A DNA stretch of 64,000 nt, taken from an uncultured Bdellovibrionales bacterium. GTDB taxonomy: Bacteria > Bdellovibrionota > UBA1018 > CAIPTA01. This document shows, in pieces, positions 4,393 to 55,622 of this stretch (positions are counted from its first letter, which is position 1; the number at the start of each line of letters is the position of its first letter). The stretch covers positions 7,013 through 71,012 of the forward strand of contig CAZTCD010000001.1 in NCBI GenBank assembly GCA_964612065.1. The letters are read 5' to 3'. A model generated the notes under the pieces. It did no database searches, had not been told where the DNA came from, and saw only the letters and a program-made list of their open reading frames with translations. Both the position numbers and the translations under genes were made by a program.

Positions 4393-5505
4393 CTATTTTT
4401 TGGTGTAAATCAGCTCGTAGGTGTCGGTGCCTTTCAGGATGGCAGATCCGTTGAGCTTCACCATATAACCGGAGCGCACATTCCCTGATGTAGGGTAGTA
4501 GGATGTGGGCTGGTTAGAGCGGTATCCAACGTATTCCCATCCGTTGCTGTTGCTGTTAGGCAAAGTGGAACCGTTTTTCTTCACAGTGATGGAAGAGGGA
4601 TCCGGCTCCTCGGGGAATACAAGGTAGTTGAATTCGATTGTCTGCACGATGGTTACCAGGCGCGAGCGGATGTCATAGAGCACATTGGACAAACCGCCGT
4701 TGCAAAGATCGTACGAAGCGCCGCCCAGTGCAGCTGCCATATTCATATAACGAATGCCTGCCCAAGTGCGTCCACCTCCGTAGCAGTCAGAATAGCTCTG
4801 AGCTGATACTACTGAGTAGAGGCGGTCCAACTGGGGTACATTGTTTTTGACCTGCAAGAAGTAGTTCTTGTAGGCATCGAATGAAGCCTGGGTGGTGGGG
4901 CTATTGTAGTCGATCGAGGTGGTTGCACCATCGGGGCGTGTAATATATGCAACGCCGGAGTGGTCATCGTTATTCGATATGATTACCATCGCAAGGGCGG
5001 CATCCTGGCGGATAAAGCCGGAGCTGATCAGGCTATTCAAATTGTAGTTCATGTTCTGGAACCCAAGATCAACGTTTCCAGTGGACGAGTTTCTGGAGTT
5101 GATCCAGCCAGAATCACCTGAAAGGCTGTTGAAATAGTTCACGCTCGAAGGGCCAACGCATCCTCCAGATGGAACGCCGTTGCAGTCAGTGGCCAGAACT
5201 ACTTTTGAGCTGATATGTTGCTGGCTTAGAAGGGGCAGAACTACAACTCGGTATTCCCAGTTCGTATCGAGTTGAGCCAGAAATCCCGAAAGCTGTGGCT
5301 TCAGCTGGGCCATTGCGTTGGTTAAAGAGTCAGAATTGTCCTGGAAGATCACTAGATCAAGCTTTGGCTTGATGTAGTTGTACTGGCCGGCGATTCCTAC
5401 CGAGCTCTCTTCGAGTTTTCTGAAGGTTTTCTTACCGCAGGCAGAAAGCGCAGTAATAGCCATCAGGGCTACAGTCACGGCTTTCCAGTTTCTCGGCTTC
5501 AACAT
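4393..5505 (-). CDS. hypothetical Asn/Ser/Tyr-rich lipoprotein
   Basis: A lipoprotein signal MLKPRNWKAVTVALMAITALSAC is present, with an AGGAG Shine-Dalgarno 8 nt upstream of this Met. It is a long, low-complexity N/S/G/Y-rich, surface-type protein. Confidence 0.55.
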   Translation of the reverse strand: MLKPRNWKAVTVALMAITALSACGKKTFRKLEESSVGIAGQYNYIKPKLDLVIFQDNSDSLTNAMAQLKPQLSGFLAQLDTNWEYRVVVLPLLSQQHISSKVVLATDCNGVPSGGCVGPSSVNYFNSLSGDSGWINSRNSSTGNVDLGFQNMNYNLNSLISSGFIRQDAALAMVIISNNDDHSGVAYITRPDGATTSIDYNSPTTQASFDAYKNYFLQVKNNVPQLDRLYSVVSAQSYSDCYGGGRTWAGIRYMNMAAALGGASYDLCNGGLSNVLYDIRSRLVTIVQTIEFNYLVFPEEPDPSSITVKKNGSTLPNSNSNGWEYVGYRSNQPTSYYPTSGNVRSGYMVKLNGSAILKGTDTYELIYTKK

Positions 5506-5716
5506 AAACAACTCCTGGTAACAGTCACACTTCACATGCAATACACAACGTTCGCTTCCACTAAGGGCACGGGGCACTGTGATCTAGCATGGAAAAGCAA
5601 GGCCGATGCCAATAGGAGACAGGCTCCGTCCGATTATTTAAGTATTTGAATTCTCAGCATTATTTTAAGTTGAGTGGATTTTGGGCCCGGGTGCCTAATG
5701 TTTAGGCTCCGGTACG

Positions 5717-6601
5717 GTGTCTGATCTTTATACAGCTAATTATACGACTAAACTAAAACGGCAGAAGGTTGCCCCTGTCACGCAACTGCTCAATACTAAA
5801 TATATGGAAAACACGCTGAATCTTCTAATGCAGGACACCGCCCTTAAATGGTTTACCGTTGTGGCCGGTCGCCCGGTAGGACCTCTGAGCGCGAAAGAGA
5901 TAGCACAGAGAATCAAGGCCAACGAGCTTACTTTTGCTTCTCACGTCTGGAAGGACGGCTTCAGCGGCTGGACCCGAATTTATGACGTAATCGACTTTAA
6001 GCCTCTCTTGCCCGCGGAGCCCAGTGCCGCCCATTTGGCTGAAGTTCAGAAGAGTTCAAGCGGCGGAGCTCCTCCTCCTCTTGCGCCAGCTCAGAAGGAG
6101 GAGCTGCGGGTATGGTACGCATATCTTGATGAGGCTAGCTATGGTCCTGTATCTGATCGTGAAGTAACTTCACTTATTGAGAGTGGCCGTATAACCGCGA
6201 ACACTTATATGTGGACCAAAGGCTTTGATGATTGGCAGCTAGGGAAAGACATTGATTACTGGAAAAATCGCTTGGGTACCCCGGTTGCCACCAAGCCGGC
6301 GGATAAGAGAGCGGCTCCGAGAAAGCCATTTGAAACCCGAATCCTGCTTACTGATGGAAAAGAAGTTGGATGGGCCATCTGTAGAGATATCAGTGTCGGC
6401 GGAATGCAGGTACTTATGGACCATTCGCCAGGCCCTTCAGGTACGCAGCTCAAACTGAATGTGAACCCACAAGGTAGTGTGCCCGGCTTTGCTTGTGAGG
6501 GGGTAGTGGTTCGCATTCTCGAAGATGGAAGAGGATTTTCGTTCCGATTCACGTCTCTTTCGCCTGAAGCCCGTGCAGCCATTGAAAAGTATATTGGCTA
6601 G
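5717..6601 (+). CDS. tandem DUF4339 (GYF-like) domains fused to a C-terminal PilZ-like domain
   Basis: There are two copies of the W..VAG/YGP...E...I..G.l....vW..GF..W motif (WFTVVAGRPVGPLSAKEI...VWKDGFSGWTRI and WYAYLDEASYGPVSDREV...MWTKGFDDWQL). The C-terminus carries a DISVGG (DxSxGG) PilZ signature and a beta-barrel-like tail. The start is uncertain, either the GTG at 5717 or the ATG at 5804. Confidence 0.55.
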   Translation: MSDLYTANYTTKLKRQKVAPVTQLLNTKYMENTLNLLMQDTALKWFTVVAGRPVGPLSAKEIAQRIKANELTFASHVWKDGFSGWTRIYDVIDFKPLLPAEPSAAHLAEVQKSSSGGAPPPLAPAQKEELRVWYAYLDEASYGPVSDREVTSLIESGRITANTYMWTKGFDDWQLGKDIDYWKNRLGTPVATKPADKRAAPRKPFETRILLTDGKEVGWAICRDISVGGMQVLMDHSPGPSGTQLKLNVNPQGSVPGFACEGVVVRILEDGRGFSFRFTSLSPEARAAIEKYIG

Positions 6602-8030: not shown

Positions 8031-8872
8031 TTTAAGTACCCTGCTCGGTCGCCTGTAGGAAAACTTAGGCTTTGCTTCGGTATGTTCTTCCAAGCAGGAA
8101 GCTTCCAATATGAAGCATCAGGTGGAAGCTGTTGGTTGTCTGCGATAATCCAAATGAGGATCTTTCCAGAGTTCAGAAATACATCTGAATGACGGAACCC
8201 CTGCTCAAGGGCAATTTGATAAAAATCAGAGGTCGTGTCAATAACGGCGGCTTTTCTGCATTGGAGCAAAACGTTTGCTTCAGCGATTTCCATATAATCT
8301 CGTTCGTCGAGGTCGATTTCAAAAGCAGCTTTCCCCTGAGAAAATTCCAAGGTGTTCGATGATAGGTGGCGCTGAAATCTGTCGCTTAAAACGTGATTTA
8401 CTGTGAACTCCATAAGCTCACGCGATTTTTCTTTTACGCCACAACTCAGGTGATCTACCAAAGAGCGTCCATATGTTGTGTTAGATCGTCCAAGAAAGCT
8501 CACATCGCTTCCTTTCAAGCAGGGAGAAACCTGTCCTTGCTCGGGATTGATGTAGCTAAAACAGAGGTCACAGAAGAGCGCTTTTGCGAAATCGTCGTCA
8601 CCGTACAAAAGAATCCACGAGCCCTGTTGAATTTGTAGATTCAGGTCGCAAATGGAAGGAGGTAAATTCACTTTATCGAAATGGATTTGATCGCCTGCCT
8701 GAGACTCAGGAAACAAGCGAAGTTTCCTGAGCGGCTCGGCCCAGTCTTTTCCCAGCGCCTGAATGGAGCGTGTCCTTAATACAGGTTTCTTCCAGCCAAA
8801 GATCACAAGACCCACCTTTACTTTGATGCAGCTGCAAAACCCGCACCACAGCATTTTCGCGACTTGAATCAA
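8027..8872 (-). CDS. hypothetical protein with an N-terminal Cys cluster
   Basis: The 281-aa ORF converges on pyrE with a 4-nt overlap. Its N-terminus is WCGFCSCIKV. No recognisable family emerges by eye; a DTW-like domain was considered but is not supported. Confidence 0.4.
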   Translation of the reverse strand: MIQVAKMLWCGFCSCIKVKVGLVIFGWKKPVLRTRSIQALGKDWAEPLRKLRLFPESQAGDQIHFDKVNLPPSICDLNLQIQQGSWILLYGDDDFAKALFCDLCFSYINPEQGQVSPCLKGSDVSFLGRSNTTYGRSLVDHLSCGVKEKSRELMEFTVNHVLSDRFQRHLSSNTLEFSQGKAAFEIDLDERDYMEIAEANVLLQCRKAAVIDTTSDFYQIALEQGFRHSDVFLNSGKILIWIIADNQQLPPDASYWKLPAWKNIPKQSLSFPTGDRAGYLN

Positions 8873-9058
8873 CGGTCGGCTGGTTAACTAACTGATTTTT
8901 AATGAAAAATTTGACTATAACGACAGCTGCCAGGGGCCAGGAGTAGCTGAAAACACAGGCCAATTTGACACTGCGGTGTCAGCTTGGCATTCCTTCTGTC
9001 TCTGATTTTCATAGTTTTAACGAGCTGAGTTCACCCTCGAAATCGCTATAATGTACCT

Positions 9059-11110
9059 ATGCTTCAGTTCCTGTTCGTCGCAATAGCTTTGCTTCTTCCA
9101 CAGATTCCGCGTGCGGAGCCGGCAAGCACGAAGCACGTAACAGCAGAATTGATTACTGAAAGCAATTTTCTTCGCGCAGGCGACAAAGGGGCAGGTGCAA
9201 ACTGGATTGGGTTGCGTTTGGAGATGCAGCCGCATTGGCATACTTATTGGCGTTATCCCGGAGATTCTGGGTTGCCTACTGAGGTGAGCTGGAAGCTGCC
9301 AGCCGGCTGGAAGGTGTATGGACCATACTGGCCTTTGCCTCAACGCATTTTCGTGCCTCCTTTGGTGAACTACGGATTCGAAGGCGAAGCGCTGATTGGA
9401 TACAAGGTAGAGGTTCCCCGTGACGCAAAATTGGGATTGCATCGATTGTATGCAGAAGCAAACTGGCTAGTTTGTAAAGAAACCTGTATTCCGGAGAAAG
9501 TAGATCTCTATCTTGATGTGCTTGTTAGAGCCGGGAATCCGACTCCGGGGGGGCAGGGAAGATTTTTTGCATCTCTCCGAAAAGAACAGCCGTTACCGCT
9601 TCCTGAAGGAAGTTCAATTGAAGTCATTTATAAAAGTGGTTATTTGGGCCTGAAATTTGCTGGAATAGAAAGCCCGGGCGAAGTCGATTTTTTTCCTCTT
9701 GTTCCCCAATTGTTAAAAGGGGAGGCGGCTCCTACGCGTGAAGGTGACGTGTACTGGCTTGCACTTGCAGATCCGCTGGATAAGAGCGTGTCGTCTCTGT
9801 CGGGATTATTAGTGTTTGGTTCCGGTTCTGACCGGAGAGTGCATGAAATCTCACTGCCTGTGGCATTTCCCGCGAATGCTCTTGCTTTAGCACCCAGGGA
9901 AAGAGAGTCCGGACCGTCGTCGTGGATCTTGATCTTCTTCGCGTTTCTGGGCGGATTGATTTTGAATTTCATGCCATGTGTTTTTCCAGTGCTCGGAATA
10001 AAAGTGCTGGCTCTTGTAAAGCAAAGCCACGGGCATCATAGAAAACTTATTGGCCATGGGCATGCTTATACGGCAGGTGTGCTCACCAGCTTTTTGACGC
10101 TCGGAGGTGGCCTGCTGGTATTAAGAGGATTGGGGCAAACCATCGGCTGGGGTTTTCAGCTTCAGCAGCCTGTTTTTGTGGCATTATTAATTCTGCTTTT
10201 TTCCTTTGTTACTGCTGATCTTGCCGGTTTTGTTCGCTGGAGCGGATCATGGATGGGGGCTGGAGGAAATCTGGCGAATAAAGAAGGGGCGATGGGATCC
10301 TTTTTTACCGGAGTTCTAGCTGTTGTCGTGGCCACTCCTTGTACCGCCCCTTTTATGGGAACGGCAGTTGGGGCTGCAATAGCGGAGCCGGCACTGGTGG
10401 TGGCGGTGGTATTCGCGGCGCTTGGGCTGGGCCTTTCTGCTCCATTTCTGGTTCTTTGCTATAAACCATCCCTTCTCGGAATTTTGCCTCGCCCCGGATC
10501 TTGGATGGAGCGGATGAAAGAGCTTTTTGCGTTCCCTATGGCGGCAACCGTGATTTGGTTGTTCTGGGTGCTCACTCAGCAAATTGGCTCTGACGGAGCA
10601 TTGGGTGTTCAATTAGGATTGGTGATCATTGTGTTTTCAGAGTGGGCCCATCGAAATCTGGCCTATCGGGCACTGCGCTGGATCCGCTGGGCTCTGATTA
10701 TCACTGGAGTGGGGATAGTACTCGGTGGAACTGCTTCCATTCCGCCGCAGCGTGCGGAAGTTCAGTCAAACGGAGCGTGGAAGCCATATAGTGACCGAGC
10801 ACTTGAGGATGCCTTGAATTCCGGGAAGGCAGTATTTGTGGATTTCACGGCTGCGTGGTGTTTGACCTGCCAAGTAAATAAAAAACTTGTACTTGATAGA
10901 TCATCGATGCAGGACTTTTTCCGGGAACGGAATGTGGTGCTCCTTGTTGCAGATTGGACAAATAGAAGCTCTGAAATCACAAGGGCACTGGAGCGCCATG
11001 ACCGTTTAGGTGTTCCGTTGTATCTGGCTTTTAAGCCTGGACAGAAAGAACCCACGATACTTCCGCAGGTGTTAACTTCCGAGATTGTGCGCGAGTCGCT
11101 TTCTCCCTGA
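9059..11110 (+). CDS. dsbD: thiol:disulfide interchange protein DsbD
   Basis: A signal peptide is followed by a periplasmic N-domain. The membrane core carries CVFPVL and ATPCTAPF Cys motifs. A C-terminal thioredoxin fold has WCLTC. Size is 683 aa. Confidence 0.85.
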   Translation: MLQFLFVAIALLLPQIPRAEPASTKHVTAELITESNFLRAGDKGAGANWIGLRLEMQPHWHTYWRYPGDSGLPTEVSWKLPAGWKVYGPYWPLPQRIFVPPLVNYGFEGEALIGYKVEVPRDAKLGLHRLYAEANWLVCKETCIPEKVDLYLDVLVRAGNPTPGGQGRFFASLRKEQPLPLPEGSSIEVIYKSGYLGLKFAGIESPGEVDFFPLVPQLLKGEAAPTREGDVYWLALADPLDKSVSSLSGLLVFGSGSDRRVHEISLPVAFPANALALAPRERESGPSSWILIFFAFLGGLILNFMPCVFPVLGIKVLALVKQSHGHHRKLIGHGHAYTAGVLTSFLTLGGGLLVLRGLGQTIGWGFQLQQPVFVALLILLFSFVTADLAGFVRWSGSWMGAGGNLANKEGAMGSFFTGVLAVVVATPCTAPFMGTAVGAAIAEPALVVAVVFAALGLGLSAPFLVLCYKPSLLGILPRPGSWMERMKELFAFPMAATVIWLFWVLTQQIGSDGALGVQLGLVIIVFSEWAHRNLAYRALRWIRWALIITGVGIVLGGTASIPPQRAEVQSNGAWKPYSDRALEDALNSGKAVFVDFTAAWCLTCQVNKKLVLDRSSMQDFFRERNVVLLVADWTNRSSEITRALERHDRLGVPLYLAFKPGQKEPTILPQVLTSEIVRESLSP

Positions 11111-38013: not shown

Positions 38014-39773
38014 TTACGTTTTGGCAAGTGGTTCATTGAGTTTCGAGAAAAGTTCGAGAATATGCTCTGGCGACATATTCACCGAGGTTTTTTCTCCATA
38101 TTTTCTAGCGTAGAAAACTCCAGCAGCGATGTCTCGATCCCCTGCTGCAAGCATATAAGGGATCTTTTGGATTTGGGCCTCCCGAGTTTTCGCTCCCATC
38201 GTGTTATTGGATGTATCTACATCCACCCTTAGCCCGATGGATTTTAATTTTTCGGCCATATTTTTGCAGTACTCTACATGAGAGTCATTTATGGGAACAA
38301 AGCGAGCTTGAATCGGGGAGCACCAGAACGGGAGGGCTCCAGCGGTATGTTCGATCAGAATTCCCATGAATCGTTCAAGGGAACCGAGTACTGCACGGTG
38401 AATTACCACTGGTTGCTGGCGCGAATTGTCCGCCGCAACGTATTCCAAATTGAAGCGAGCAGGAAGCTGGTAATCAAGTTGGATAGTGGATAGCTGGAAG
38501 TAGCGTCCAATGGCGTCTTTGACATTGAAGTCGATTTTGGGCCCGTAAAAGGCACCGTCGTTCGCGTTGATCTTATAGGGGAGATTGTTTACTTTAATGG
38601 CACTTTCCAGTGCTGCTTCGGCTCTATCCCAGAGCTCGTCGGAACCGAGTCGCTTTTCAGGGCGGGTGCTCAAGTATACAAGAGGGTCCGATAAGCCGAA
38701 CACATCGTACACTTCCCGGATCATGCGGATTACGTTAGCCACTTCTTCCGCGATTTGATCTTCTCTTACGAAGATATGAGCGTCATCCTGGCAGAAGCTC
38801 CGCACGCGGGTTAGTCCGGCGGTTACTCCAGAGCGCTCGTAACGATGGAGTCTTCCGAAATCGGCCATGCGAATCGGAAGTTCCCTGTAAGAATGCTGTT
38901 TGGTACCGAAGATCAGCATATGGCAGGGGCAGTTCATTGGTTTTACGGCTACGTCCACTTCGTCCTGCTTGGAGAAGTACATGTTTTCTTTGTAGTTCGC
39001 GTAGTGCCCCGAGGTGTGCCAGAGATCCACGTTTAGAACCTGGGGTGTAATTACCTCTTCGTATCCGTACTTCGTATACAGACGGCGCATGAGGTTAGTG
39101 AGTTGGTTGTAAACCACGGCGCCTTTGGCATGAAAAAAGGGCATCGCCGGAGCTTCCGAATGAAAGCTGAACAGCTCAAGTTCTTTTCCGAGTTTTCGAT
39201 GGTCGCGCTTCTTAGCCTCTTCCATCATTTTTTCGTAGGCTTCTAGTTCATCTTTGGTTTCAAAGCAGAGGCCATAGATACGCGTGAGCATCGCGTTTTT
39301 TTCATTTCCCCGCCAATAAGCGCCCGCCATATGGGTGAGCTTGAATGCCTTGATGTCCCTTGTGGATGCTACGTGCGGTCCTTGGCACATATCGGTGAAT
39401 TCACCTTCAGTGTAGGTGCCAACTTGTTGCAGATTCAGGTCACGAATCAGCTCGAGTTTGAAGTGCTGGCCTTTGTCGCCAAAAAAACGAATCGCCTCTT
39501 CGCGGCTCATCACCCGTTGTTCGAATCTTCGGCCCTCCTTCACGATTTTTTTCATCTCGGCTTCGATCTTCGGAAGAATGCTTTCGTCAACCGGTTGAGG
39601 AAATTTGACGTCATAATAAAAACCATTGTCGATATCAGGGCCAACACCGAATTCTGAGCCCGGAAACAAGCGGGTGATAGCATGGGCCATTACGTGCGAG
39701 CAGGAGTGACGCATGGTTTGCAAGGGGGATAGTTTGGGGGTTTCTAGCAGCTCAGAAAGTTCTTTTTCCATAG
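38014..39773 (-). CDS. thrS: threonine--tRNA ligase
   Basis: The editing-domain motif is RHSCSHVMAHAI. The class II catalytic core has FGRLHRYERSGVTAGLTRVRSF. The C-terminal anticodon-binding domain is present. The start is set at MEKELSEL, giving 586 aa. No TGS domain is visible. Confidence 0.85.
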
Positions 39774-39980
39774 GCCAGGGAGTGTAACATCTCGCACTTC
39801 TGGATGAAATTCCTAAGCTATGCAACTCGGGGGATGGAGAACGGGCGTGAGACTGGTGATGTGTCGAGGGCATTTGGAACACGCCGAAATCCAATAATCC
39901 CCAGTTTTCAAATGGGAATCTGGCTCGGGTATCTATCGGGAAAACCCTACTGCGCGCCGAGTTAATCCGAAGATGCGCGA

Positions 39981-40968: not shown

Positions 40969-41506
40969 TTCTTCTCTCCATTACCCACCCATCCCTTTTT
41001 CCAGGATAGTATCTTGGCAGCCTGGCGGTTGCTCGAAAGCCCTGCTTTAGATAGAGGGCCAAAGCCGCAATATTATCCTGGGGCACATGCAATCGAATAG
41101 CGCGCTTTTTTCTATGCTGAGCAAGACGCAAGAGACGCTTCATTAGCAGGCTCCCGACTCCACGATTTCGTTTGTTTTGAGCTACGGCAAGGTCATAGAT
41201 AACCATCAATTTCGGCTCTATCAGAGAGTAATGAGCGAAACCTGCCACTTGATTGTCTTTGGAAAGTGCCACCAACAGTTCACCCAGATCACCGGTGCTT
41301 TCCAAAATTTTTGTGAATCCGCTGAGCGAGGTCACCAATTTTGAGTCATAGGATTGCTCTTCAATCCTGGAGATATCGGGCAGATGCTCATAGAGTGCTT
41401 CTGCTGTTTTCACGATATCACCCGATAACGTCGAATTGCCTCTTGATCCCCGTTGCCCCAGACTTTGTCTTTCAAGCTTCCTCCAGCATGCTCGATTATC
41501 CGCCAC
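40955..41506 (-). CDS. GNAT family N-acetyltransferase
   Basis: The acetyl-CoA binding motif is VAQNKRNRGVGSLLMKRLLRLAQ. Its 3' end overlaps the atl start by 14 nt. Confidence 0.7.
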   Translation of the reverse strand: MADNRACWRKLERQSLGQRGSRGNSTLSGDIVKTAEALYEHLPDISRIEEQSYDSKLVTSLSGFTKILESTGDLGELLVALSKDNQVAGFAHYSLIEPKLMVIYDLAVAQNKRNRGVGSLLMKRLLRLAQHRKKRAIRLHVPQDNIAALALYLKQGFRATARLPRYYPGKRDGWVMERRIERQ

Positions 41507-41579
41507 GAGGGGAGCATTCGAGTCGCCACCTCATGTCCAATATGCCCACCATCGATGGCGGAGATTTTCATGGCCCCCA

Positions 41580-42365
41580 TTACCATTCTCTTTGATAAAC
41601 GCTGACGCATGCCGGGTGCGGCAGCGGATAAAAGTCACAATCAAGGTGTGCTCTCTCCAAAAGTAATAAGCCGCTGTCGTGTCGGGCTTTGTCAAATTCC
41701 TCTTCTTCCCATGCCCCCTGATGGACCAATACCAATAAGGCACCCGGTTTCATGTTCCTGCGAAAGCTCAAGATCCACGGTTTCGGGTTTCCGAAATAAG
41801 AAGGCAGCCCCCACGCTAACGCCGGATTAATGCTGACAAACGGATAGAAACAGCAAATCAGGTCGACCGGATCGTTCCATAGAAAATAGTCCCCTTCTAC
41901 GTACCTGTCTGCTGCATTTACCAGGTTCAAGTAATACTTTGCCTTGTCCCAGCGTGAGTGGAAGCCGTGTAATAGGGGAAACGGATCGACCTCGATTCCT
42001 GTGATGCGCGTGTTTGCGTAAAAATTTCTGAAGAATAGCCGCAAGCTCGGGATCCGGGCGAAGTCTTGGCAGCCGGGTTCGGCAATTTCTAGTTCGAGAA
42101 GATCAGTTCTCAGGTGGGGCGCTACCAAGCGGTCGAGCACCCAAAGGGTCCATAAATTTTTTTTATATACTTCAGGGCTAAGCCTCGCAGCAAAAGATCC
42201 CAGCCCATACTTTTTCTCGAGGTTTGCCTCCGTATCGGTCCGCAAAGAGCCGTTATCACCCGATTCAAGGTAACCTTCGCGGCGAAAACGAAAGTGTGTC
42301 CGAATGGTCCAGAAAATGTGATTTCTGGCGGACAGCAGCCTTTCGGTGAGGGGGAGGCGGTGCAT
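41580..42365 (-). CDS. hypothetical protein
   Basis: The 261-aa ORF is transcribed divergently from the acyl-ligase fusion gene. It has no recognisable motif. Confidence 0.4.
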   Translation of the reverse strand: MHRLPLTERLLSARNHIFWTIRTHFRFRREGYLESGDNGSLRTDTEANLEKKYGLGSFAARLSPEVYKKNLWTLWVLDRLVAPHLRTDLLELEIAEPGCQDFARIPSLRLFFRNFYANTRITGIEVDPFPLLHGFHSRWDKAKYYLNLVNAADRYVEGDYFLWNDPVDLICCFYPFVSINPALAWGLPSYFGNPKPWILSFRRNMKPGALLVLVHQGAWEEEEFDKARHDSGLLLLERAHLDCDFYPLPHPACVSVYQREW

Positions 42366-42406
42366 AGATTTTCCTATATTGATAATCTATCCTGAATTCT
42401 CTCCAT

Positions 42407-45052
42407 ATGAGCAGTCTACATAATACAATCTTTTCACTTTACCAACAGCGCGGGAGCGGGACCGCCTTCAAGCTGCAGCTCGAAGCGGGGGGATACCGGA
42501 AAGTATCGTTCGCCGATGCCAGACTGTTGTCTCTTAAGTTGAGTGCTTATTTGCGCTCCAAGGGGGTGGTTGCAGGGGATAAAGTAATGATCGTTTCGGA
42601 AAACGCTCCGGAATGGCCGGTCGCCGCGCTCGCCGTACTGAATTTACGGGCTGTCCTGGTTCCAGTAGCCGCCATAGGCTCTAATTTCGAAATCGAGAAC
42701 GTGTTCCGGGCTGCTGCTCCGAAGTTTTGTATTTACTCTCAGGAAATCTCGGGAGCGCGACACCTGGGTGAATTGCTAAAGGCAGAGAACACGGGTTCGA
42801 TTTGTTGGAGAACCCAGGACGATGACCCGATCGGGCGCTGGGTGGAATCACAGGATCCCGATCAAGTGGACCAATCTTCAGGGGACAACGATCCGGCTCT
42901 TCTTATCTTTACTTCTGGTACAACCGGCAATCCGAAAGGAGTGCCGATTACTCACGGAAATATTCTTTCCAATGCGAGAGCTGTTGTCGGTACCTTGAGC
43001 GTTTCGGAGTATGATCGTGTGGTCTCTGTTCTGCCTTTGTCCCATATGCTCGAGTTCACCGGGGGATATGTTTTAACTTCTCTGATCGGTGCCGAAGTTA
43101 CTTACATAAAAAGCCTGAAGCCGGAAGACCTTATTCAGGCTCTTCGAGACTCCAAGGCCACTGTATTGATCGCGGTTCCGCTTCTATTTGAGGTTATTTC
43201 CCGAAATTTACAGGCAAAACTGAACAATCTGTCTGGCCCTCTTAAAAGAATGTTTTCACTTTTCTCAGTTTGGACCATGTCGTTCCCTGCTCTCGGGAAA
43301 GTGCTGTTTTATCCGATTCATGCGAAATTGGGAGGAAGCATTCGCTTTCTTGTGGCAGGCGGGGCACGCCTGCAGCCTCAGACTTTTGATTACTTCAGAG
43401 GTCTTGGGATTACCATTCTCCAAGGGTACGGGCTTACGGAAACCTCGCCGGTCCTTACATTTACAACGATGGAAACAGCCGCCCCTGATCATGTGGGTGC
43501 GCCAGTTCCTGGAGTAGAGATCGGAATTTTCGATTCGAGTGGCAACAGGTTGGATAATGGCCAAGAGGGCGAGATCTGGGCCAAGGGTCCAAGTGTTTTT
43601 TCCGGCTACCTGAATTCCGAACAGAATATGGAAACGTTTTCGAACGGATGGTTTCGCACCGGCGATCTGGGCACGCTGGATGCTTCTAATCTTCTTAGAA
43701 TTACTGGGCGGAAGAAGGACATTATCGTTACTGCTGCAGGAAAGAACGTCTATCCGGATGAGATTGAAGGTCTGGTGATGGCCTCCGGAAGTTTTTTGGA
43801 AGTGGCCGCAATGGGAATTAATGATTCTTCGGGGCATGAAAAGATCGTTTTGGTAGTTGTCCCGGACAAGACTCGTTTTCTGGGCTTGGCCCAGGCAGAA
43901 GTCTCTAGAGAATGCGAAAAATTAGCTCTCGAAAGCACCAAGTCACTGGCGGAATACAAATGGCCTCAACGAGTGGAGGTTCTCTTTGAAGACCTTCCTA
44001 AGACCAGTACCCGGAAAGTAAAAAAGCACGAGCTTAAGAAGAGGTTGGAACGACTAAAGGAAAATAGTACCACTGCACCCGCTGAAGGCGGAGAAGCGCT
44101 GAATCTGAAGAATGCGCTTGAGCTGGCGATAGCAAACGGTATTTCGGAAATCACCAAAGTCGAACCGGCCAATATTCGCTTAGAGCACTCCCTCTCAAAG
44201 GATCTCGGGCTGGACTCCCTTACCTTTGTTGAACTCGTGGGAGAGGTGGAGAAAAAGTTCAATGCGAGAATAGAGGGGGTAGATTTTTCAGCAATAGTAA
44301 CTGTGAAGGATTTGGTGAGTGCTTTACAGTTCACCTCGATGGATAAGACCGGGGCTTCTATTTTTAATAAGGTTTTTTTCGCCGATTTCAGACCAATCGA
44401 AAATCAAGGTTTTATATGGGCAGTGGTACGGGGGGCTTTCAATCGATTGGTCCGAGTACTTCTAAGATATAGGTACGATATAGAGGTTGAGGGAGTGGAA
44501 AATTTGGAGGGGGATGGCCCATTCATTTTTACTCCCAATCACTCTAGCCATTTCGATTTGCTGTCCATTGCCGGTTCTATTCCGGCGCGAATGATCCATC
44601 GGACATTTGCGGTTGCAGCCAAGGACTATTTTTTTAATGGCACATTGAAATCACTTGGAGCCCGTGCATTCGTTAATGCGATTCCTTTTGACCGAAAAGG
44701 GAGAGTGAATGAAAGCATGCAAGCCTGCCGAGAAGCCATAGATCAGGGAAACAGCCTGGTGATATTCCCTGAAGGCACGAGATCTCCCAATGGCAGCGTT
44801 CAAGAGTTTAAATCGGGAGTGGGACAGCTATTGGCAGGCCATCCCGAAGTTAAGGCTGTGCCTGTATATATCGAGGGTGCTTATCAGATTATGCCGAAAG
44901 GGGCTAGCCTGCCGGGTTCGGGCAAACTCCGTGTGAGGTATGGACGACCGATATCATTTAGGGATATGAGTTCCGAGGCGGAAAGCCTGAAGCGGATTTC
45001 CGAGAGGCTTCGTGCTGAGGTGCTTGATCTCGTGTACGGAAGACTTAATTGA
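42407..45052 (+). CDS. tri-domain fusion: acyl-AMP/CoA ligase, phosphopantetheine carrier domain and PlsC-type lysophospholipid acyltransferase
   Basis: The AMP-binding motif is LIFTSGTTGNPKGV. The carrier domain is GLDSLTFVELVGEVE (DSL). The acyltransferase motifs are NHSSHFD and FPEGTRSPNG. Size is 881 aa. Confidence 0.75.
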   Translation: MSSLHNTIFSLYQQRGSGTAFKLQLEAGGYRKVSFADARLLSLKLSAYLRSKGVVAGDKVMIVSENAPEWPVAALAVLNLRAVLVPVAAIGSNFEIENVFRAAAPKFCIYSQEISGARHLGELLKAENTGSICWRTQDDDPIGRWVESQDPDQVDQSSGDNDPALLIFTSGTTGNPKGVPITHGNILSNARAVVGTLSVSEYDRVVSVLPLSHMLEFTGGYVLTSLIGAEVTYIKSLKPEDLIQALRDSKATVLIAVPLLFEVISRNLQAKLNNLSGPLKRMFSLFSVWTMSFPALGKVLFYPIHAKLGGSIRFLVAGGARLQPQTFDYFRGLGITILQGYGLTETSPVLTFTTMETAAPDHVGAPVPGVEIGIFDSSGNRLDNGQEGEIWAKGPSVFSGYLNSEQNMETFSNGWFRTGDLGTLDASNLLRITGRKKDIIVTAAGKNVYPDEIEGLVMASGSFLEVAAMGINDSSGHEKIVLVVVPDKTRFLGLAQAEVSRECEKLALESTKSLAEYKWPQRVEVLFEDLPKTSTRKVKKHELKKRLERLKENSTTAPAEGGEALNLKNALELAIANGISEITKVEPANIRLEHSLSKDLGLDSLTFVELVGEVEKKFNARIEGVDFSAIVTVKDLVSALQFTSMDKTGASIFNKVFFADFRPIENQGFIWAVVRGAFNRLVRVLLRYRYDIEVEGVENLEGDGPFIFTPNHSSHFDLLSIAGSIPARMIHRTFAVAAKDYFFNGTLKSLGARAFVNAIPFDRKGRVNESMQACREAIDQGNSLVIFPEGTRSPNGSVQEFKSGVGQLLAGHPEVKAVPVYIEGAYQIMPKGASLPGSGKLRVRYGRPISFRDMSSEAESLKRISERLRAEVLDLVYGRLN

Positions 45053-45079
45053 ATTGAACATACTAATAGGGTTGGGATT

Positions 45080-46630
45080 TTGAGCAAATATTTCGCTACT
45101 TGTGCCAGAGGCGTTGAGGAACTAACGGAAGCCGAATTGCACTCGATTGGTGTGGAAACTACTGAGCGTACCCATGGGGGAGTGTTTTTCGAAGGCGATC
45201 AGGAGGCGCTTTATCGTGCGCACCTTTGGCTGAGGACCGCGAACCGAATTCTACTGATGCTCCGTTCGTTTCCAGTGAAGAGCCCAGATGATCTTTACGA
45301 TCAACTCTCGCGCTTCAAGTGGGAAACATTTCTGCGACCAAAGCTCACTTTTTCTATCACCTGTACGATTAGTGGAAGAAATCCCATCCAGCTCAATCAT
45401 TCTCATTTCGTGAAACTCAGAGCGAAGGACGCCATCGTTGACAGGATGAGGGAAAAGACGGGAGGCCGCCCTGATGTAAATCTGGACGATGCGGACATCC
45501 GAATCGTGCTTTATATCCGGAACGGTGTTTGTACGTTGAATATGGATGCAACCGGCCGTTCGCTTCACGAACGGGGTTATCGTTCCAGCGATGCGGCAGC
45601 TCCGCTGAAGGAGACAATGGCAGCGGCTATTCTTATGCTTTCGGGGTGGAAGCCTGGAACCCCTCTTGTGGATCCCATGTGTGGATCTGGTACTCTTCTA
45701 GCCGAAGCGGCCTTGATGTCTGCGAATTTAGCTCCGGGAGCACTACGAGCCCGTTTTTCTTTTATGAATTGGCCGGATTTTAACGAAACCACTTGGAGCG
45801 GATTACTAACTGAAGCTGACTCCAAAAGGTCCGTAGTGCCCGCGGGGCAGCTTTTCGGTTTTGATAAGGATCCGGATGCTGTTAAGCAAACCAGGAAAAC
45901 CTTCCAGGTTTTGGGAATGTTGCCAGCAGTCTCTCTTGATTGCCGTAGGTTCGAACAGTTTGTTTTGCCCGATCTTCAACAGACGGGGTTTCTTGTCGTA
46001 AATCCTCCTTACGGTGAGCGCTTGGGGGACGTGGAGAAGCTGAAGCCGTTGTATAAGAACCTCGGGGACACTCTGAAAAACAAATGCACTGGCTGGACAG
46101 CCGCTGTGTTTACCGGCAGCGCCGAATTGATGAAAGCGATAGGACTTAAGGCAAGGCGGAAAATTCCATTGTGGAACGGCCCGATAGAGTGCCGCCTGCT
46201 GGTTTATGAGGTGTTCAAGGGTAATGCCCGAGACCAAAAGGTCGGGATAGTCGTAAACTCAGATCTCCAAGAGGCCAGGGAACCAGGAATTTCGTCTCTA
46301 CAAGCGGATATTCTCGAGCATGCAACGCATACATCTCATGCCGTGAATAAACTTGTTAATATTTGTAGTGAGCATTGGCTTCAAGCCGGAGACGAAAATT
46401 CACTGGAAGAATTTTGTGCCATCACGCTCTTATCCATGGTGGAGGGCGGCATAATCGAGCTATACCCTGACTTTTCCCAGTCCGCTCCCCTTTCGTTCTC
46501 TACCGCCGAAGCGGCTTTGGCCGAATGGACGGAAGAAGGATTCGAGGGAAATTTGCGGCTGGCTATTCTTGCGACGGAAAAAGGGAAACGACTGTTCCAA
46601 GAATACGTAACTTTGAATTCAGAGAGCTAA
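45080..46630 (+). CDS. THUMP-domain rRNA (guanine-N2)-methyltransferase (RlmL-like) with an extra C-terminal domain
   Basis: The THUMP N-terminus is present. The SAM-binding motif is DPMCGSGTLLAEAA and the catalytic motif is NPPYGERL. About 130 aa of C-terminal sequence are uncharacterised. Confidence 0.7.
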   Translation: MSKYFATCARGVEELTEAELHSIGVETTERTHGGVFFEGDQEALYRAHLWLRTANRILLMLRSFPVKSPDDLYDQLSRFKWETFLRPKLTFSITCTISGRNPIQLNHSHFVKLRAKDAIVDRMREKTGGRPDVNLDDADIRIVLYIRNGVCTLNMDATGRSLHERGYRSSDAAAPLKETMAAAILMLSGWKPGTPLVDPMCGSGTLLAEAALMSANLAPGALRARFSFMNWPDFNETTWSGLLTEADSKRSVVPAGQLFGFDKDPDAVKQTRKTFQVLGMLPAVSLDCRRFEQFVLPDLQQTGFLVVNPPYGERLGDVEKLKPLYKNLGDTLKNKCTGWTAAVFTGSAELMKAIGLKARRKIPLWNGPIECRLLVYEVFKGNARDQKVGIVVNSDLQEAREPGISSLQADILEHATHTSHAVNKLVNICSEHWLQAGDENSLEEFCAITLLSMVEGGIIELYPDFSQSAPLSFSTAEAALAEWTEEGFEGNLRLAILATEKGKRLFQEYVTLNSES

Positions 46631-46640
46631 GCTTACAAGC

Positions 46641-47282
46641 TTAGAGCTTGGTTAACTGCCTTCGATGAAAGAAGGTAAGCGTAGAGAGAATCTGCGCAAA
46701 TCCGAGCAGAAACACGTTTATCACCGGAATGAACAACAACAGATTCAACAAGAGCCCCAGAAAAAAATTTGAAACCGGATTCTTAAAGAACAAGCGAACT
46801 CGGAATGACAAGCGCTGGTCAAATCTGCCGTAAATGGCGCATAGAAAAGAATAGGCAGCAAGCCAGGCGATGAGAATGAACTGTACAGGTGCAAGAAGGG
46901 GAATCAAGGAGAGCGCCAGCAGGAATAAAGCCGCAGCAGCCACAAGAAGCGAGTGAAAAAACTCCCTGGCCAACCGTTTCATGCCGAAGTCCGGTGCAGG
47001 AATTTTTACTTCTCCGTAAACAGCGCGCTGAACCTCATCAATAATAGGATCTTCCACGGGTAGAAGGGAGAGTTTTCCAAAGACTAACCATGTGAGTAGG
47101 AAGACCAGCATCATGGCTGGTAATGAGATCCAAAGAGCGCTGGCTTGTAGAAGTGACTGCCACGTCAGATAAACTACAACCGATGCTGACGCAAAGGTAA
47201 TAACGCCAGGAAAGACGCCCAAAGCAAATAGCTTTGGGCGCGTAAAGAACAGCTTAATTGCATGAAAAGGAAGTGAGATCAC
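46641..47282 (-). CDS. hypothetical polytopic membrane protein (CysZ/EI24-like topology)
   Basis: The 213-aa ORF contains 4-5 TM helices. Its start overlaps the stop of the upstream metalloprotease gene by 4 nt. Confidence 0.35.
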   Translation of the reverse strand: MISLPFHAIKLFFTRPKLFALGVFPGVITFASASVVVYLTWQSLLQASALWISLPAMMLVFLLTWLVFGKLSLLPVEDPIIDEVQRAVYGEVKIPAPDFGMKRLAREFFHSLLVAAAALFLLALSLIPLLAPVQFILIAWLAAYSFLCAIYGRFDQRLSFRVRLFFKNPVSNFFLGLLLNLLLFIPVINVFLLGFAQILSTLTFFHRRQLTKL

Positions 47283-49807
47283 TTTTTCGCGTCTTGGTTT
47301 TTCTCAGCAGGTTTCCTCAAGAGCGCGGCCTTTAACGATCGCGCTACCTCGCGTTTTTGCGGAGAATCTGCATCTTGAATTTCGGCTTCAAGCATAATTT
47401 TAATACGGCCTGCCAGGCTTTGGTAGGCTTCCGACTGGTAATAAGACTTGAGTGCCTTGATGGATTCCATCCTTTCGGCGGCCGGCCGGTCATTCGTCCC
47501 TGCTTTTGCAGAAGCAAGCGATACCAATCCATTCATTACAACTTGTTCCAAATCCATTTTTTGGCCATTTCGTATATGAAAGGCGAGTGGTGCCGTAGGC
47601 GTGTTTCCCAAAGACTGGATGAATCTGAGTCTAAGTCTCGAAAGCAGGGCGGTTTCCATTCCCTTATAGGCTTTATCCAAGGCGGCTTCCAACGTCTTAA
47701 GCAAGGCTTCTTGATCTGTACGTTCGAGGCCTGCCACATAGGCAGAATTGGAAAGATAAGACAGAAGCTTGGTTTTGGTTGGATCCACGGCCGCACGAGT
47801 CACCGCCGGAAATTCATTCATTCCAATTCCCGCTTCAAAAGCTTGCAGCGCACGGTCACGCATCTCTTCTTCCTTCAGTCCTTCAGGTAGCACATCCTCT
47901 CGGAACACTTTCAAGGACTTCACGGACTGCGAGGCGAGATATCCGAAGCTGTTGGCGCTTGCGGCAATGTAGATGCCGGCGGTTCCAGAGACGCCAGCTA
48001 TCCCTTTTTTCATAGCCGCAATGAGTTCGTCTTTCGTCTTTACCGCGGACGCAGGAGGAAGAGAGAGCAGGGCATTGTCCATCTTTTCAGAAGTGATGGA
48101 TTGCATTCTTCCTCTATGTGCACCTTCTTTTGTGAAAAGCTCCAAGGCGCGAAGCGCTTGTGCCGTTGGGTCCGCCCCAATATCGTATCGATTGCAAAGG
48201 GGATCTACTCCGCCTTCATTTGAGTCGGCTTCTTCATCGTTGCAGGCGGAAAGCTCCGGATCCTGATCTTTTACATCTTTGCCTTCGTTATAGAGCACGG
48301 AGATGATCTGCCGGTCATACTCAAGGAGAGGGCCACTACTCTCTTCCAGGGCTGAGAAGGCACCGTCCTCTTCATTATAGTGATTGTAGTCCATAATGGA
48401 GGTGGAAAACGGCTTAGACGAGTCGTCTGCGTCGTAAGAAAGAGATCCACGGAAGTTGTGAGCAAGCCCGAGGGCGTGCCCAACTTCATGCATCACCACT
48501 CCCTTTAAAAGTTCTCTTGCAAACTCATCGGGCTTAACATCCGAATCGATTCGCACATTGAGCTCCTTGGCAGCCTCCATGCAGTGAATTGGAATTTTTC
48601 TGCCTGCAATTTTCCGCTTTGAAAGCAGCCGCTTTACTGCATCAACGCGAAGCATACGCTGTTGGTCGGTGTCGTCAGGCACTTGCGAGCCGGGGGTGAT
48701 TTTAGTCCAGTAGTCCTTGCCGATATTGATCCAGGCCAATGGAATATAAATCAAACTCTGGGTCTGGATTCCGGTAACGGGATCGGCATTTTGGCTTTCG
48801 TAAGCCGCGCCAGCTTCCTGAACAGTGTCCCACACGATCGTATTGAATCTCGGATCTCCCAGCTTAATCCCTTCTGGCAGCTTGCCTTCAAAGCGAATCA
48901 GATTTGGGATGTAACGGTTCCAGGCCTCAACGCCGTTTCTAATGTCTTTTAGGTATTGCTCTGGCACATTGCCGAAAACGTACCACTTAATTGGCTCTCC
49001 ATTTTTGCGGAGGAAGCGATTTGCGGCTTTGGTTTTTGTGCGAACACCAGGTTTAGATTCGTGAAAAAAGTCGCCTGCATCAAGAAATCGATAGCGTTCT
49101 GCCAGTGGATTTTCTTCCGCATTCGCCAGGATCGGTTTTGCGTCTGCTGGAATCACTAGATCGCGCGGGCGGATGGATTCCATGAAGCCGGCACGGCTAC
49201 CATCTTTTTCTTCAATCGTAGTCTCGATCAAAAAAAGTTCATCGGCAGCAATATGTTCGATAGATCGAATGTAAGAATACTTTTCCCCCTTTGATTCCTT
49301 CCCGAAAACAAAAGTTCCCAGAATAGGGGAGGCATTTTCTGTTTTAACGGTAATTAAATCCCCAACCCGGGCAACGATTGGAAGGTCCAAAATCAAGCGA
49401 GGTGGCATCGGTACGTCGCTCTCAAAGTTGATGCTCGCATCAGTCTCTAGACGAAGGCGATTGGCAAAAATTCGGAAATGAGCAGGAAGCTGGGTAAGCG
49501 AAATACCCATTAACGCGGTTTCTAACTCTTCCTCTCGAATAGACGAATTCTGAAGAGCGGCTCCGTATAAAAAAGTGCGGTTCAGCAGAGATTTAGTATC
49601 AAGGGTGATGGTTGCCTCAATTGATCCTGCAATGCGCCCGGGAATCAGGCTGCCGTCAGCTCCGATTGCCGGGGCCTTGGTTTCCTGCAGTTCTTTCACC
49701 TGAAGAGACTGAACTATAGGGGATGGCTCGCTCTCTTTCGAACATGAAAAAAGAGTGAAAGCTGAAATGGAAAGAGCGGCAAGCAAGAGCGATCGATGAG
49801 GCAGCAT
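47279..49807 (-). CDS. large metzincin-type zinc metalloprotease lipoprotein
   Basis: The lipobox is LFSC. The zinc motif is HEVGHALGLAHNF (HExxHxxGxxH). Size is 842 aa. Confidence 0.65.
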   Translation of the reverse strand: MLPHRSLLLAALSISAFTLFSCSKESEPSPIVQSLQVKELQETKAPAIGADGSLIPGRIAGSIEATITLDTKSLLNRTFLYGAALQNSSIREEELETALMGISLTQLPAHFRIFANRLRLETDASINFESDVPMPPRLILDLPIVARVGDLITVKTENASPILGTFVFGKESKGEKYSYIRSIEHIAADELFLIETTIEEKDGSRAGFMESIRPRDLVIPADAKPILANAEENPLAERYRFLDAGDFFHESKPGVRTKTKAANRFLRKNGEPIKWYVFGNVPEQYLKDIRNGVEAWNRYIPNLIRFEGKLPEGIKLGDPRFNTIVWDTVQEAGAAYESQNADPVTGIQTQSLIYIPLAWINIGKDYWTKITPGSQVPDDTDQQRMLRVDAVKRLLSKRKIAGRKIPIHCMEAAKELNVRIDSDVKPDEFARELLKGVVMHEVGHALGLAHNFRGSLSYDADDSSKPFSTSIMDYNHYNEEDGAFSALEESSGPLLEYDRQIISVLYNEGKDVKDQDPELSACNDEEADSNEGGVDPLCNRYDIGADPTAQALRALELFTKEGAHRGRMQSITSEKMDNALLSLPPASAVKTKDELIAAMKKGIAGVSGTAGIYIAASANSFGYLASQSVKSLKVFREDVLPEGLKEEEMRDRALQAFEAGIGMNEFPAVTRAAVDPTKTKLLSYLSNSAYVAGLERTDQEALLKTLEAALDKAYKGMETALLSRLRLRFIQSLGNTPTAPLAFHIRNGQKMDLEQVVMNGLVSLASAKAGTNDRPAAERMESIKALKSYYQSEAYQSLAGRIKIMLEAEIQDADSPQKREVARSLKAALLRKPAEKNQDAKK

Positions 49808-54716: not shown

Positions 54717-55622
54717 ATGAGAAAATCTGTTCTACTAGCGCTTCTTCTGGGATCGCTTCCCTTGGTGGCACTGGCCTCTGACGCCGAAGTTTCTGAAACG
54801 GAATCTAAACCCATCCCCACGGAAGAAGTGGCTCCGCAGGAGGATCCTCCGCTGGGATGGTTCTCTTTCCTTACAAAAATTCCCGGTGACTATGTTGCCG
54901 TGGCCAATTCTCTGTTCGCCAGAGACCAGATTGGGAACTGGGCGGGGGTAGTGGGATCCACTGCGGCTCTCATTAAATATGATTACGAGCTCTGGCAGCC
55001 TTTTTCCAAAGAGCACGCAAAGAAAGGGTTTGCTTTCGATGCTACGGAGTTTGGATGGAATGTGGGTAAGGGGGGCTTTCAGTTTTTGATCGCCGGCGGC
55101 TTCCTGCTTTACGGTGGAGCATTCAAGAGCCATCGTGCTCTTAGAACTTGCAGTCAGATCCTTGAGGTAGTGATCGCCACAGGAATCACCACACAGGTGC
55201 TAAAGCATATTACCGGGCGCGAGAGCCCGAACGTGGCTACCGAGCCGCGCACCGGAAAGTGGCAATGGTTCCCGAATCCGGCCAAATATTCCAGGCGGGT
55301 ATCTGCCTATGATGCATTTCCGTCCGGTCATATTGCCACCACTCTCGCGACTACGAGAGTGATCATTGCGAATTATCCTGAGCAGAAATGGATTCCCTGG
55401 GTGGGATATCCATTGGTTGCATTTGTTGGAGTAAGCATGGTGGCTACGAACGGGCATTGGTGGAGTGATTATCCGCTAAGCATTCTGCTTGGATACCATT
55501 TCGCAAAGGCGGTGACCCGCGGAAATGCTCCTTACCGAGCCGAAGATGAACGAGCTTTACGCCTGGATCCCTATGTTCCTTTCCCTGAGAGCGCTGGCTT
55601 GATGCTAACCAAGCGCTTCTAG
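54717..55622 (+). CDS. PAP2-family phosphatase
   Basis: A signal peptide is present. The PAP2 motifs are KHITGRESP, PSGH and SMVATNGHWWSD (SRxxxxxHxxxD-type). Confidence 0.7.
   Translation: MRKSVLLALLLGSLPLVALASDAEVSETESKPIPTEEVAPQEDPPLGWFSFLTKIPGDYVAVANSLFARDQIGNWAGVVGSTAALIKYDYELWQPFSKEHAKKGFAFDATEFGWNVGKGGFQFLIAGGFLLYGGAFKSHRALRTCSQILEVVIATGITTQVLKHITGRESPNVATEPRTGKWQWFPNPAKYSRRVSAYDAFPSGHIATTLATTRVIIANYPEQKWIPWVGYPLVAFVGVSMVATNGHWWSDYPLSILLGYHFAKAVTRGNAPYRAEDERALRLDPYVPFPESAGLMLTKRF

Follow-up and report, generated by a model that had tools for sequence, protein, structure and literature searches.

The locus and its tri-domain gene

A 64,000-nucleotide stretch of DNA from an uncultured Bdellovibrionales bacterium (GenBank assembly GCA_964612065.1, contig CAZTCD010000001.1, forward-strand positions 7,013 to 71,012; hereafter the window) encodes an 881-aa protein that combines an adenylate-forming ligase or adenylation (A) domain, an acyl carrier protein (ACP) domain and a PlsC-type acyltransferase (AT) domain in a single polypeptide. 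Comparison with its relatives indicates that this protein is very likely an ElbD-like enzyme that lacks the reductase domain of that family. The gene, the segments coding for its domains and its divergently transcribed neighbor, which has the predicted fold of an S-adenosylmethionine (SAM)-dependent methyltransferase, are as follows:

42407..45052 (+): A-ACP-AT tri-domain gene, 881 aa, supported by an ATG-started open reading frame (ORF), Pfam domains and ElbD-like colinearity
42473..43612 (+): ANL adenylate-forming N-terminal domain, residues 23-402 (PF00501)
43760..44017 (+): C-terminal subdomain of the adenylation domain (AMP-binding_C), residues 452-537 (PF13193), ending with the A10 motif PKTSTRK
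44129..44323 (+): built-in AcpP-like acyl carrier domain, residues 575-639 (PF00550)
44480..44872 (+): acyltransferase (AT) domain of the PlsC/lysophospholipid acyltransferase (LPLAT) type, residues 692-822 (PF01553)
41580..42365 (-): conserved partner with a predicted class I SAM-methyltransferase fold, 261 aa, 41 bp from the main gene

An earlier reading of this DNA, made from its letters and ORF translations (the sequence-only reading), had described an intact 881-aa ORF at 42407-45052 uniting ligase, carrier and acyltransferase, with a divergent, unannotated 261-aa ORF beside it. Both ORFs are present as described, and the domain content is borne out by Pfam, in which all four models score above their cut-offs: AMP-binding (E 5.3e-76, 256 bits against a gathering score of 29.9), AMP-binding_C (28.0 against 24.5 bits), PP-binding (E 1.5e-11, 44.8 against 20.8 bits) and Acyltransferase (E 4.1e-22, 78.8 against 23 bits). 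The middle segment in particular matches carrier-protein profiles, as that reading had supposed.

The motifs quoted there likewise lie at their expected positions. GLDSLTF at 44207-44227 places the predicted phosphopantetheine attachment site at Ser604 (codon 44216-44218); NHSSHFD at 44537-44557 contains the HX4D dyad His712/Asp717 (44540-44557); and FPEGTR begins at residue 787, flanked by IPFDR (residue 759) and VPVYIEG (residue 818). The A domain has the P-loop (A3) motif TSGTTGNPKG, also among those quoted, translated from 42911-42940 and beginning at residue 169, followed by GYGLTE (A5, residue 340), TGD (A7, residues 418-420), the hinge motif GRKKD (A8, residue 434) and the A10 lysine, Lys537.

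The same 881-aa sequence has been recorded twice independently, in a 103-kb NCBI contig of a metagenome-assembled genome (MAG) and in a Logan assembly, and a database search recovered about 75 orthologous clusters of equal length with the same three domains. Thus, the ORF is neither a chance frame nor an artefact of frameshift or assembly, and the concern raised earlier that it might be split by a genuine stop is answered by the identical protein from the second assembly and by the full-length orthologues. Public annotations of these proteins are generic, naming them AMP-binding protein, long-chain acyl-CoA synthetase or, for part of the sequence, 1-acylglycerol-3-phosphate acyltransferase (AGPAT).

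Residue conservation and structure prediction

A multiple sequence alignment of 51 orthologues with 36-70% identity to the 881-aa query showed invariant residues in each of the three domains: T169-G174, K177, Q339-GYGL-x-ET, T418-G419-D420, G434-R435 and K537 in the adenylation domain; D603-S604 in the carrier; and N711-H712, D717, R763, P788-E789-G790, R792 and P819 in the AT domain. Given that the catalytic residues of all three domains are invariant down to 36% identity, all three activities appear to be under purifying selection. The best NCBIfam matches of the carrier are AcpP-type, type II ACPs. Aligned with E. coli AcpP, its 40 residues around helix II show 43% identity, and Ser604 falls opposite the attachment serine of AcpP.

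The AlphaFold2 model of the full-length protein (mean pLDDT 84, pTM 0.63) contains confidently predicted domains joined by low-confidence linkers on either side of the carrier (555-558 and 647-653). A long amphipathic helix (669-690) leads into the AT domain, and an insertion of the type seen in long-chain acyl-CoA synthetases (LACS) and ElbD, spanning approximately residues 258-308 of the A domain, is modelled as helices at 258-307. A Kyte-Doolittle scan revealed no transmembrane segment in the protein, its top window (residues 72-90) being a core element of the A domain. In a fold search the whole 881-aa model recovered only A domains and didomains of an A domain with a peptidyl carrier protein (A-PCP), such as EntE-EntB and McyG, which match its A-carrier part; no solved structure containing all three domains was found in this search. 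Like those two and the carboxylic acid reductases, and like other A-T didomains of the nonribosomal peptide synthetase (NRPS) kind, the protein has an adenylation domain that would load its carrier in cis. It differs from them in that a PlsC-type O-acyltransferase follows the carrier, instead of a condensation, reductase or thioesterase domain, and in having a more AcpP-like carrier.

The best family match of the A domain is to long-chain fatty-acid CoA ligases (PRK06187, 295 bits), and its best PDB matches are to fatty-acyl-CoA synthetases. Fatty acyl-AMP ligases (FAALs) are distinguished from acyl-CoA synthetases by a specific insertion of some 20 residues that follows the A5 motif. An indirect test for it, by alignment of query residues 305-546 with residues 278-510 of FadD13, an acyl-CoA synthetase of M. 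tuberculosis, gave a net difference of 9 residues and no sign of such an insertion. None of the top 60 PDB matches is named as a FAAL, all of them being CoA ligases and related ANL enzymes. Since the A domain is nearest to long-chain CoA ligases and retains the spacing of FadD13, adenylation of a long-chain fatty acid is the best supported first step.

Relationship to ElbD-like enzymes

The clusters with the same architecture number about 80 and, where a source is named, all come from MAGs of Bdellovibrionota, Oligoflexia or Bdellovibrionales. The next tier of database matches consists of proteins of approximately 1470 aa with 33-35% identity, which additionally contain the NAD_binding_4 and Sterile domains of a fatty-acyl reductase and thereby display the architecture of ElbD. 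A single colinear alignment relates the 881-aa protein to one such ElbD-like protein of 1476 aa (P0092), with 34% identity over 867 residues (query 19-863 against 572-1419). As colinearity begins at residue 572 of the longer protein, the additional reductase (approximately 570 residues) is N-terminal and the remainder corresponds one-to-one.

In a midpoint-rooted neighbour-joining tree of the A-ACP-AT module common to short and long forms, the 72 short-form clusters from Bdellovibrionota/Oligoflexia constitute one clade, sister to an ElbD-like clade. The latter contains 32 long forms together with 3 partial sequences intermediate in length, and nested among these are 2 that are short or partial. 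The short form thus shares with ElbD of M. xanthus (MXAN_1528) and with the ElbD-like proteins of Acidobacteriota, Planctomycetota and Poribacteria the colinear module, the A-domain insertion and the motifs of carrier and AT domain. It differs in starting directly at the A domain, without the N-terminal fatty-acyl reductase (PF07993/PF03015), and its gene lies outside an elb operon, with neither an ElbB-type HAD protein nor an ElbE-type short-chain dehydrogenase/reductase (SDR) nearby. No reductase homologue was detected in any ORF of the window (E <= 1), nor was an ElbE-like SDR, and the window genes scanned with Pfam yielded no HAD-family match. In the family loci examined, no homologue of a FAR-type reductase lies within 6 kb of the gene. 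Given this lack of both reductase and elb operon context, a role in ether-lipid synthesis is not implied.

The sequence-only reading had regarded the architecture as unusual, which does not hold, as the A-ACP-AT arrangement is already on record and widespread. Lorenzen et al. 2014 are cited in PMC9131029 for the statement that almost all ElbD-like homologues in other phyla are without the FAR1 domain, and split elbD variants, with one ORF for the reductase and another for A-ACP-AT, have been described in Poribacteria and Acidobacteria (preprint 10.64898/2026.06.23.733905). A search of 1.84 billion cluster representatives with the ACP-AT half recovered 187 with E <= 1e-30, many of them 815-920 aa long and matched at their C-terminus; Pfam verified the A-ACP-AT order in those tested. 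Outside Bdellovibrionota, short forms are found in sources named as Anaerolineae/Dehalococcoidia, Armatimonadota and Bipolaricaulia, and two Acidobacteriota loci (L008 and L009) likewise encode reductase-less forms. These reductase-less or split homologues resemble the 881-aa protein in domain order and in length (about 830-920 aa), from which it is distinguished by membership of its own Bdellovibrionota/Oligoflexia clade and by its own conserved methyltransferase-like partner. A survey of the literature on the architecture and on lipid salvage in Bdellovibrio turned up no biochemical work on a short form. Two further variants surfaced in these searches: an 1115-aa protein with two acyltransferase domains (A-ACP-AT-AT; P0206) and a 294-aa ACP-AT didomain without a ligase (P0209), encoded by a contig of 1.4 kb and possibly fragmentary.

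Comparison with E. coli Aas

BLASTP aligns the protein with E. coli Aas in two separate matches of swapped order, residues 153-482 of the A domain with Aas 359-658 (29% identity, E 4e-28) and residues 678-825 of the AT domain with Aas 6-140 (29% identity, E 4e-12). Furthermore, the AT domain on its own has the Aas-type AT as its top-scoring named family (2e-21). The two proteins therefore have homologous A and AT domains and are likely to share the same net reaction, in which a fatty acid and ATP yield an acyl-carrier and then an acylated lysolipid. Aas, however, has the order AT then A, is without an internal carrier and uses free AcpP. The 881-aa protein, with its order A, ACP and AT, also has the additional A-domain insertion, is without LplT nearby and falls far below the cut-offs of the Aas family. 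With the NCBIfam Aas models PRK08043, PRK08633 and PRK06814, the full protein fails the equivalog cut-offs (223 against 1221 and 184 against 1349 bits), as does the AT domain alone (43 against 886 bits). The insertion (approximately 258-308) is gapped in the Aas alignment and aligned in the ElbD-like protein, and no LplT homologue was detected in the window (E <= 10) or in seven loci of relatives, L081-L087 (E <= 1e-3).

The label "permuted Aas-like" given to the protein in the sequence-only reading is therefore apt in part: the three domains, the order opposite to that of Aas, the built-in carrier and the homology of both halves all stand. Descent from a permuted Aas does not, in view of the ElbD-like colinearity, the common insertion, the failed Aas cut-offs and the missing lplT. 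Given the two matches and the standing of the Aas-type AT as the best named family, Aas-like net chemistry is a reasonable working model. As far as the alignments allow, the protein probably works like Aas and has the ancestry of ElbD.

The acyltransferase domain and its potential acceptor

Beyond Aas, the AT domain matches PlsC of T. maritima (PDB 5KYM; E 4e-18) and the AGPAT family (3e-15), and reaches the lyso-ornithine-lipid acyltransferase OlsA with a sub-threshold value (2e-8) that is weaker than those for Aas and AGPAT. It shares with PlsC and canonical AGPATs the HX4D and EGTR blocks, a similar domain size and a helix before the catalytic core. It is distinguished from them by fusion to its own acyl-donor machinery and by a single long predicted helix, as opposed to the two-helix membrane motif that T. 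maritima PlsC reportedly possesses. Since Aas-type ATs, AGPATs and T. maritima PlsC acylate lyso-glycerolipids at the membrane surface, a lysophospholipid or lysophosphatidate is the most probable acceptor, and this assignment, made from the similarities of the domain, is the weakest step of the mechanism proposed below. A GNPAT-like specificity for dihydroxyacetone phosphate was also considered, with no support emerging either way; in a 2026 PNAS paper GNPAT is linked to MXAN_1675 and not to ElbD.

The divergent 261-aa partner

The divergently transcribed 261-aa gene upstream of the enzyme encodes a protein with no match in Pfam or NCBIfam. Its structure is predicted with confidence (pLDDT 95) to be of the class I methyltransferase fold; motif I, LEPGCQDF, is atypical, with invariant Q99 and F101 in place of the second and third glycines. 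An F-Y-P-F motif after strand 4 is invariant in its family. The 65 clusters of this family stem from contigs similar in kind to those that carry the 881-aa family, and at least 15 contigs carry members of both. A homologue is absent beside family members at 41% and 37% identity. Nevertheless, the gene is a conserved partner of the A-ACP-AT gene, adjacent to it even where the other neighbors differ, and the functional link between the two that had been suggested earlier is supported by this conserved synteny. We also considered whether the 261-aa protein is a detached RlmK-like partner of the RlmL-like gene that follows the enzyme (see below) and rejected this as its main link, because in L087 its homologue adjoins the A-ACP-AT gene in the absence of any RlmL-like gene.

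The 41-bp intergenic stretch between the divergent starts of the two genes (42366-42406) is AT-rich, and no clear Shine-Dalgarno sequence was seen before the ATG at 42407. With so short a gap, the promoter of each gene must overlap either the gap itself or coding sequence. A consensus scan yielded no sigma-70-like site within 42366-42406; over 41400-46800 it counted 1 promoter-like site where 4.5 were expected, and 7 terminator-like ones where 6.9 were expected.

Genomic context

The wider neighborhood is of a housekeeping kind, with genes for RimP-NusA-IF2-TruB, threonyl-tRNA synthetase (ThrRS), a GNAT protein, an MGMT-like DNA-binding protein and pseudouridine synthases. Other features of the surroundings are:

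45080-46630 (+): RlmL-like THUMP methyltransferase (RlmL_1st, THUMP, UPF0020), 516 aa, 27 bp after the main gene
46641-47282 (-): EI24/CysZ-like membrane protein, overlapping the DUF4953 gene by 4 bp
47279-49807 (-): DUF4953 protein, 842 aa, with the zinc-metalloprotease-like motif HEVGHALGL seen in its sequence
54717-55619 (+): PAP2-superfamily phosphatase, possibly a lipid phosphate phosphatase, about 10 kb downstream

In the loci of relatives (L081-L087), which were obtained by exact-protein look-up, the gene order ThrRS ... 261-aa gene / A-ACP-AT / RlmL-like ... EI24 / DUF4953 is kept at 68%, 56% and 51% identity of the enzyme. At 43% identity (L087) a divergent homologue of the 261-aa gene is kept and all other neighbors are different, and at 41% (L085) neither partner is present. 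The most distant short form, from an Oligoflexia MAG (L086, 37%), is accompanied by a convergent SDR/epimerase gene (8595-9575, -). Homologues of this gene (E 1e-30 to 1e-37) directly follow the ElbD-like genes in L001, L003, L006 and L007, which makes it ElbE-like. An elb-type pathway may thus have been linked to the enzyme ancestrally, a link no longer visible in the subclade of the window, and there is a hint that basal clade members retain part of such a pathway. Given the housekeeping context and its retention in relatives, a core membrane-lipid role fits better than membership of a specialised gene cluster.

Some further observations concern the neighbors themselves. The RlmL-like protein matches positions 4-391 of the 704 of the bifunctional RlmKL model, that is, the N-terminal half only, and is approximately 130 residues longer at its C-terminus than its counterparts of 380-393 aa in L081-L083, the extension having no Pfam match. 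L081, L083 and L084 share the EI24/DUF4953 pair downstream, and L082 shares just the DUF4953 gene. The PAP2 phosphatase is the sole other candidate lipid-metabolism gene seen near the enzyme, and a thiolase gene is cut by the start of the window (3-1151). The ORF for ThrRS (38014-39894, -) gives 626 aa from its first TTG, against 584-586 aa in relatives; as these are shorter, translation probably starts some 40 codons further on. In L083 (51%) an unannotated 214-aa gene (5290-5934, +) stands between the methyltransferase-like gene and the enzyme, and an unannotated 372-aa gene (9788-10906, +) comes after the RlmL-like one; homologues of these two genes are absent from the window and the other loci. 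In L086 an unannotated 243-aa gene (5267-5998, +) ends 2 bp before the start of the enzyme.

Proposed mechanism and alternative explanations

We propose that this ElbD-like enzyme without the reductase is, somewhat more probably than not, a self-contained machine for the activation and esterification of fatty acids. From the observed domains, their order, residues, relationships and context we infer its fatty-acid substrate, channelling in cis, acceptor and physiological role. The ANL domain would convert ATP and a free long-chain fatty acid to acyl-AMP, and the acyl group would then pass in cis to the built-in carrier, which is tethered by the two flexible linkers and would receive it on the thiol of a 4'-phosphopantetheine arm at Ser604. 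The carrier would present this acyl thioester to the C-terminal PlsC/LPLAT-type domain with its His712/Asp717 dyad, which, placed at the surface of the cytoplasmic membrane by its amphipathic helix, might O-acylate a hydroxyl of a (lyso-)glycerolipid acceptor. Free fatty acids could thereby enter membrane lipid while bypassing acyl-CoA and the soluble ACP pool. Consistent with the first two steps, a review reports that M. xanthus ElbD, which contains the corresponding module, showed ligase and carrier activity in vitro (PMC9131029).

Several points weigh against this proposal. Acyltransferase activity has never been detected for ElbD (PMC9131029), which leaves the final acyl-transfer step without biochemical precedent in the family. 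The AT domain falls below the cut-off for canonical AGPATs (TIGR00530, 56.2 against 102.95 bits), and its closest stand-alone relatives (38-43% identity), which also fail that model, are unassigned proteins of the LPLAT family. Finally, the genome may hold a reductase gene outside the 64-kb window.

The last point leads to a different view of the protein, as one half of a split ElbD: A-ACP-AT would load the fatty acid, and a separate reductase, with ElbE- or AGPS-like partners elsewhere, would direct it to alkyl ether lipids as in myxobacteria. The sister relationship and colinearity with ElbD-like proteins, the split variants of Poribacteria and Acidobacteria and the ElbE-like SDR convergent to the short form of L086 are all in keeping with it. 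However, neither a reductase nor an ElbE-like SDR is found in the window, nor a FAR-type reductase close to the gene in the family loci. The described variants, moreover, are divided between the reductase and A domains, implying adjacent ORFs, and all 72 of the 72 clade members are short, so that we consider this view unlikely. We judge it just as doubtful that the enzyme serves a specialised lipid, either by acylating an acceptor other than a phospholipid (a lyso-aminolipid, for instance, in the manner of OlsA and GlsA) or through methylation of the chain, head group or product by its neighbor. The partner gene, which stays divergently adjacent in L087 amid otherwise different surroundings and belongs to a 65-cluster family recurring on contigs with the enzyme family, its predicted methyltransferase fold and the sub-threshold OlsA match all point in this direction. 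Yet its degenerate motif I makes SAM binding only putative, it is absent beside the members at 41% and 37% identity, and the OlsA matches are weaker than those to Aas and AGPAT; also, no OlsB- or GlsB-like N-acyltransferase was found among the window genes scanned with Pfam, which did not include the smaller ORFs.

A true domain-permuted descendant of Aas, acting in a lysophospholipid repair cycle equivalent to that of LplT-Aas, is more improbable still. Both halves are indeed homologous to Aas (29% each) and the Aas-type AT is the best named family, but colinearity with ElbD-like proteins extends over the full length at higher identity. The A-domain insertion is common to those proteins and missing in Aas, the scores of 43-223 bits stand against equivalog cut-offs of 886-1349, and LplT is lacking in the window and in the family loci. 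Least credible of all, to the point of being barely tenable, is an ordinary acyl-CoA synthetase with vestigial carrier and AT domains. The public annotations as long-chain acyl-CoA synthetase or AMP-binding protein agree with it, and the A domain is closer to CoA ligases than to acyl-AMP ligases, but the attachment serine and all catalytic residues of the AT domain are invariant down to 36% identity.

Significance

As the architecture is on record and widespread, the finding does not overturn current understanding. Its residual interest lies in the housekeeping context of the clade to which the protein of the window belongs, in the conserved atypical methyltransferase-fold partner, and in the fact that no member of the architecture has a demonstrated acyl transfer or a known acceptor. 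Public annotations miss the three-domain nature of these proteins and could be improved. If the proposed mechanism of self-contained activation and esterification holds, the short form would be the simplest natural machine of the ElbD type, and hence a tractable model for the acyltransferase step and acceptor of the family, and would represent a route that brings free fatty acids into membrane lipids and needs neither CoA nor free ACP. Such a route would bear on the reuse of lipids by predatory or scavenging bacteria.

A wider and more tentative possibility, which we rate well below even chances, is that this is a core route by which an uncultured Bdellovibrionota lineage builds or remodels its membrane phospholipid from free fatty acids, possibly prey-derived as the sequence-only reading had speculated, without CoA or soluble ACP, coupled to a lineage-specific partner of methyltransferase fold that may modify the lipid or regulate the enzyme. 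If true, this would constitute a mechanistically distinct pathway beside FadD with PlsB/PlsC, Aas or AasS, and FakAB-PlsX-PlsY.

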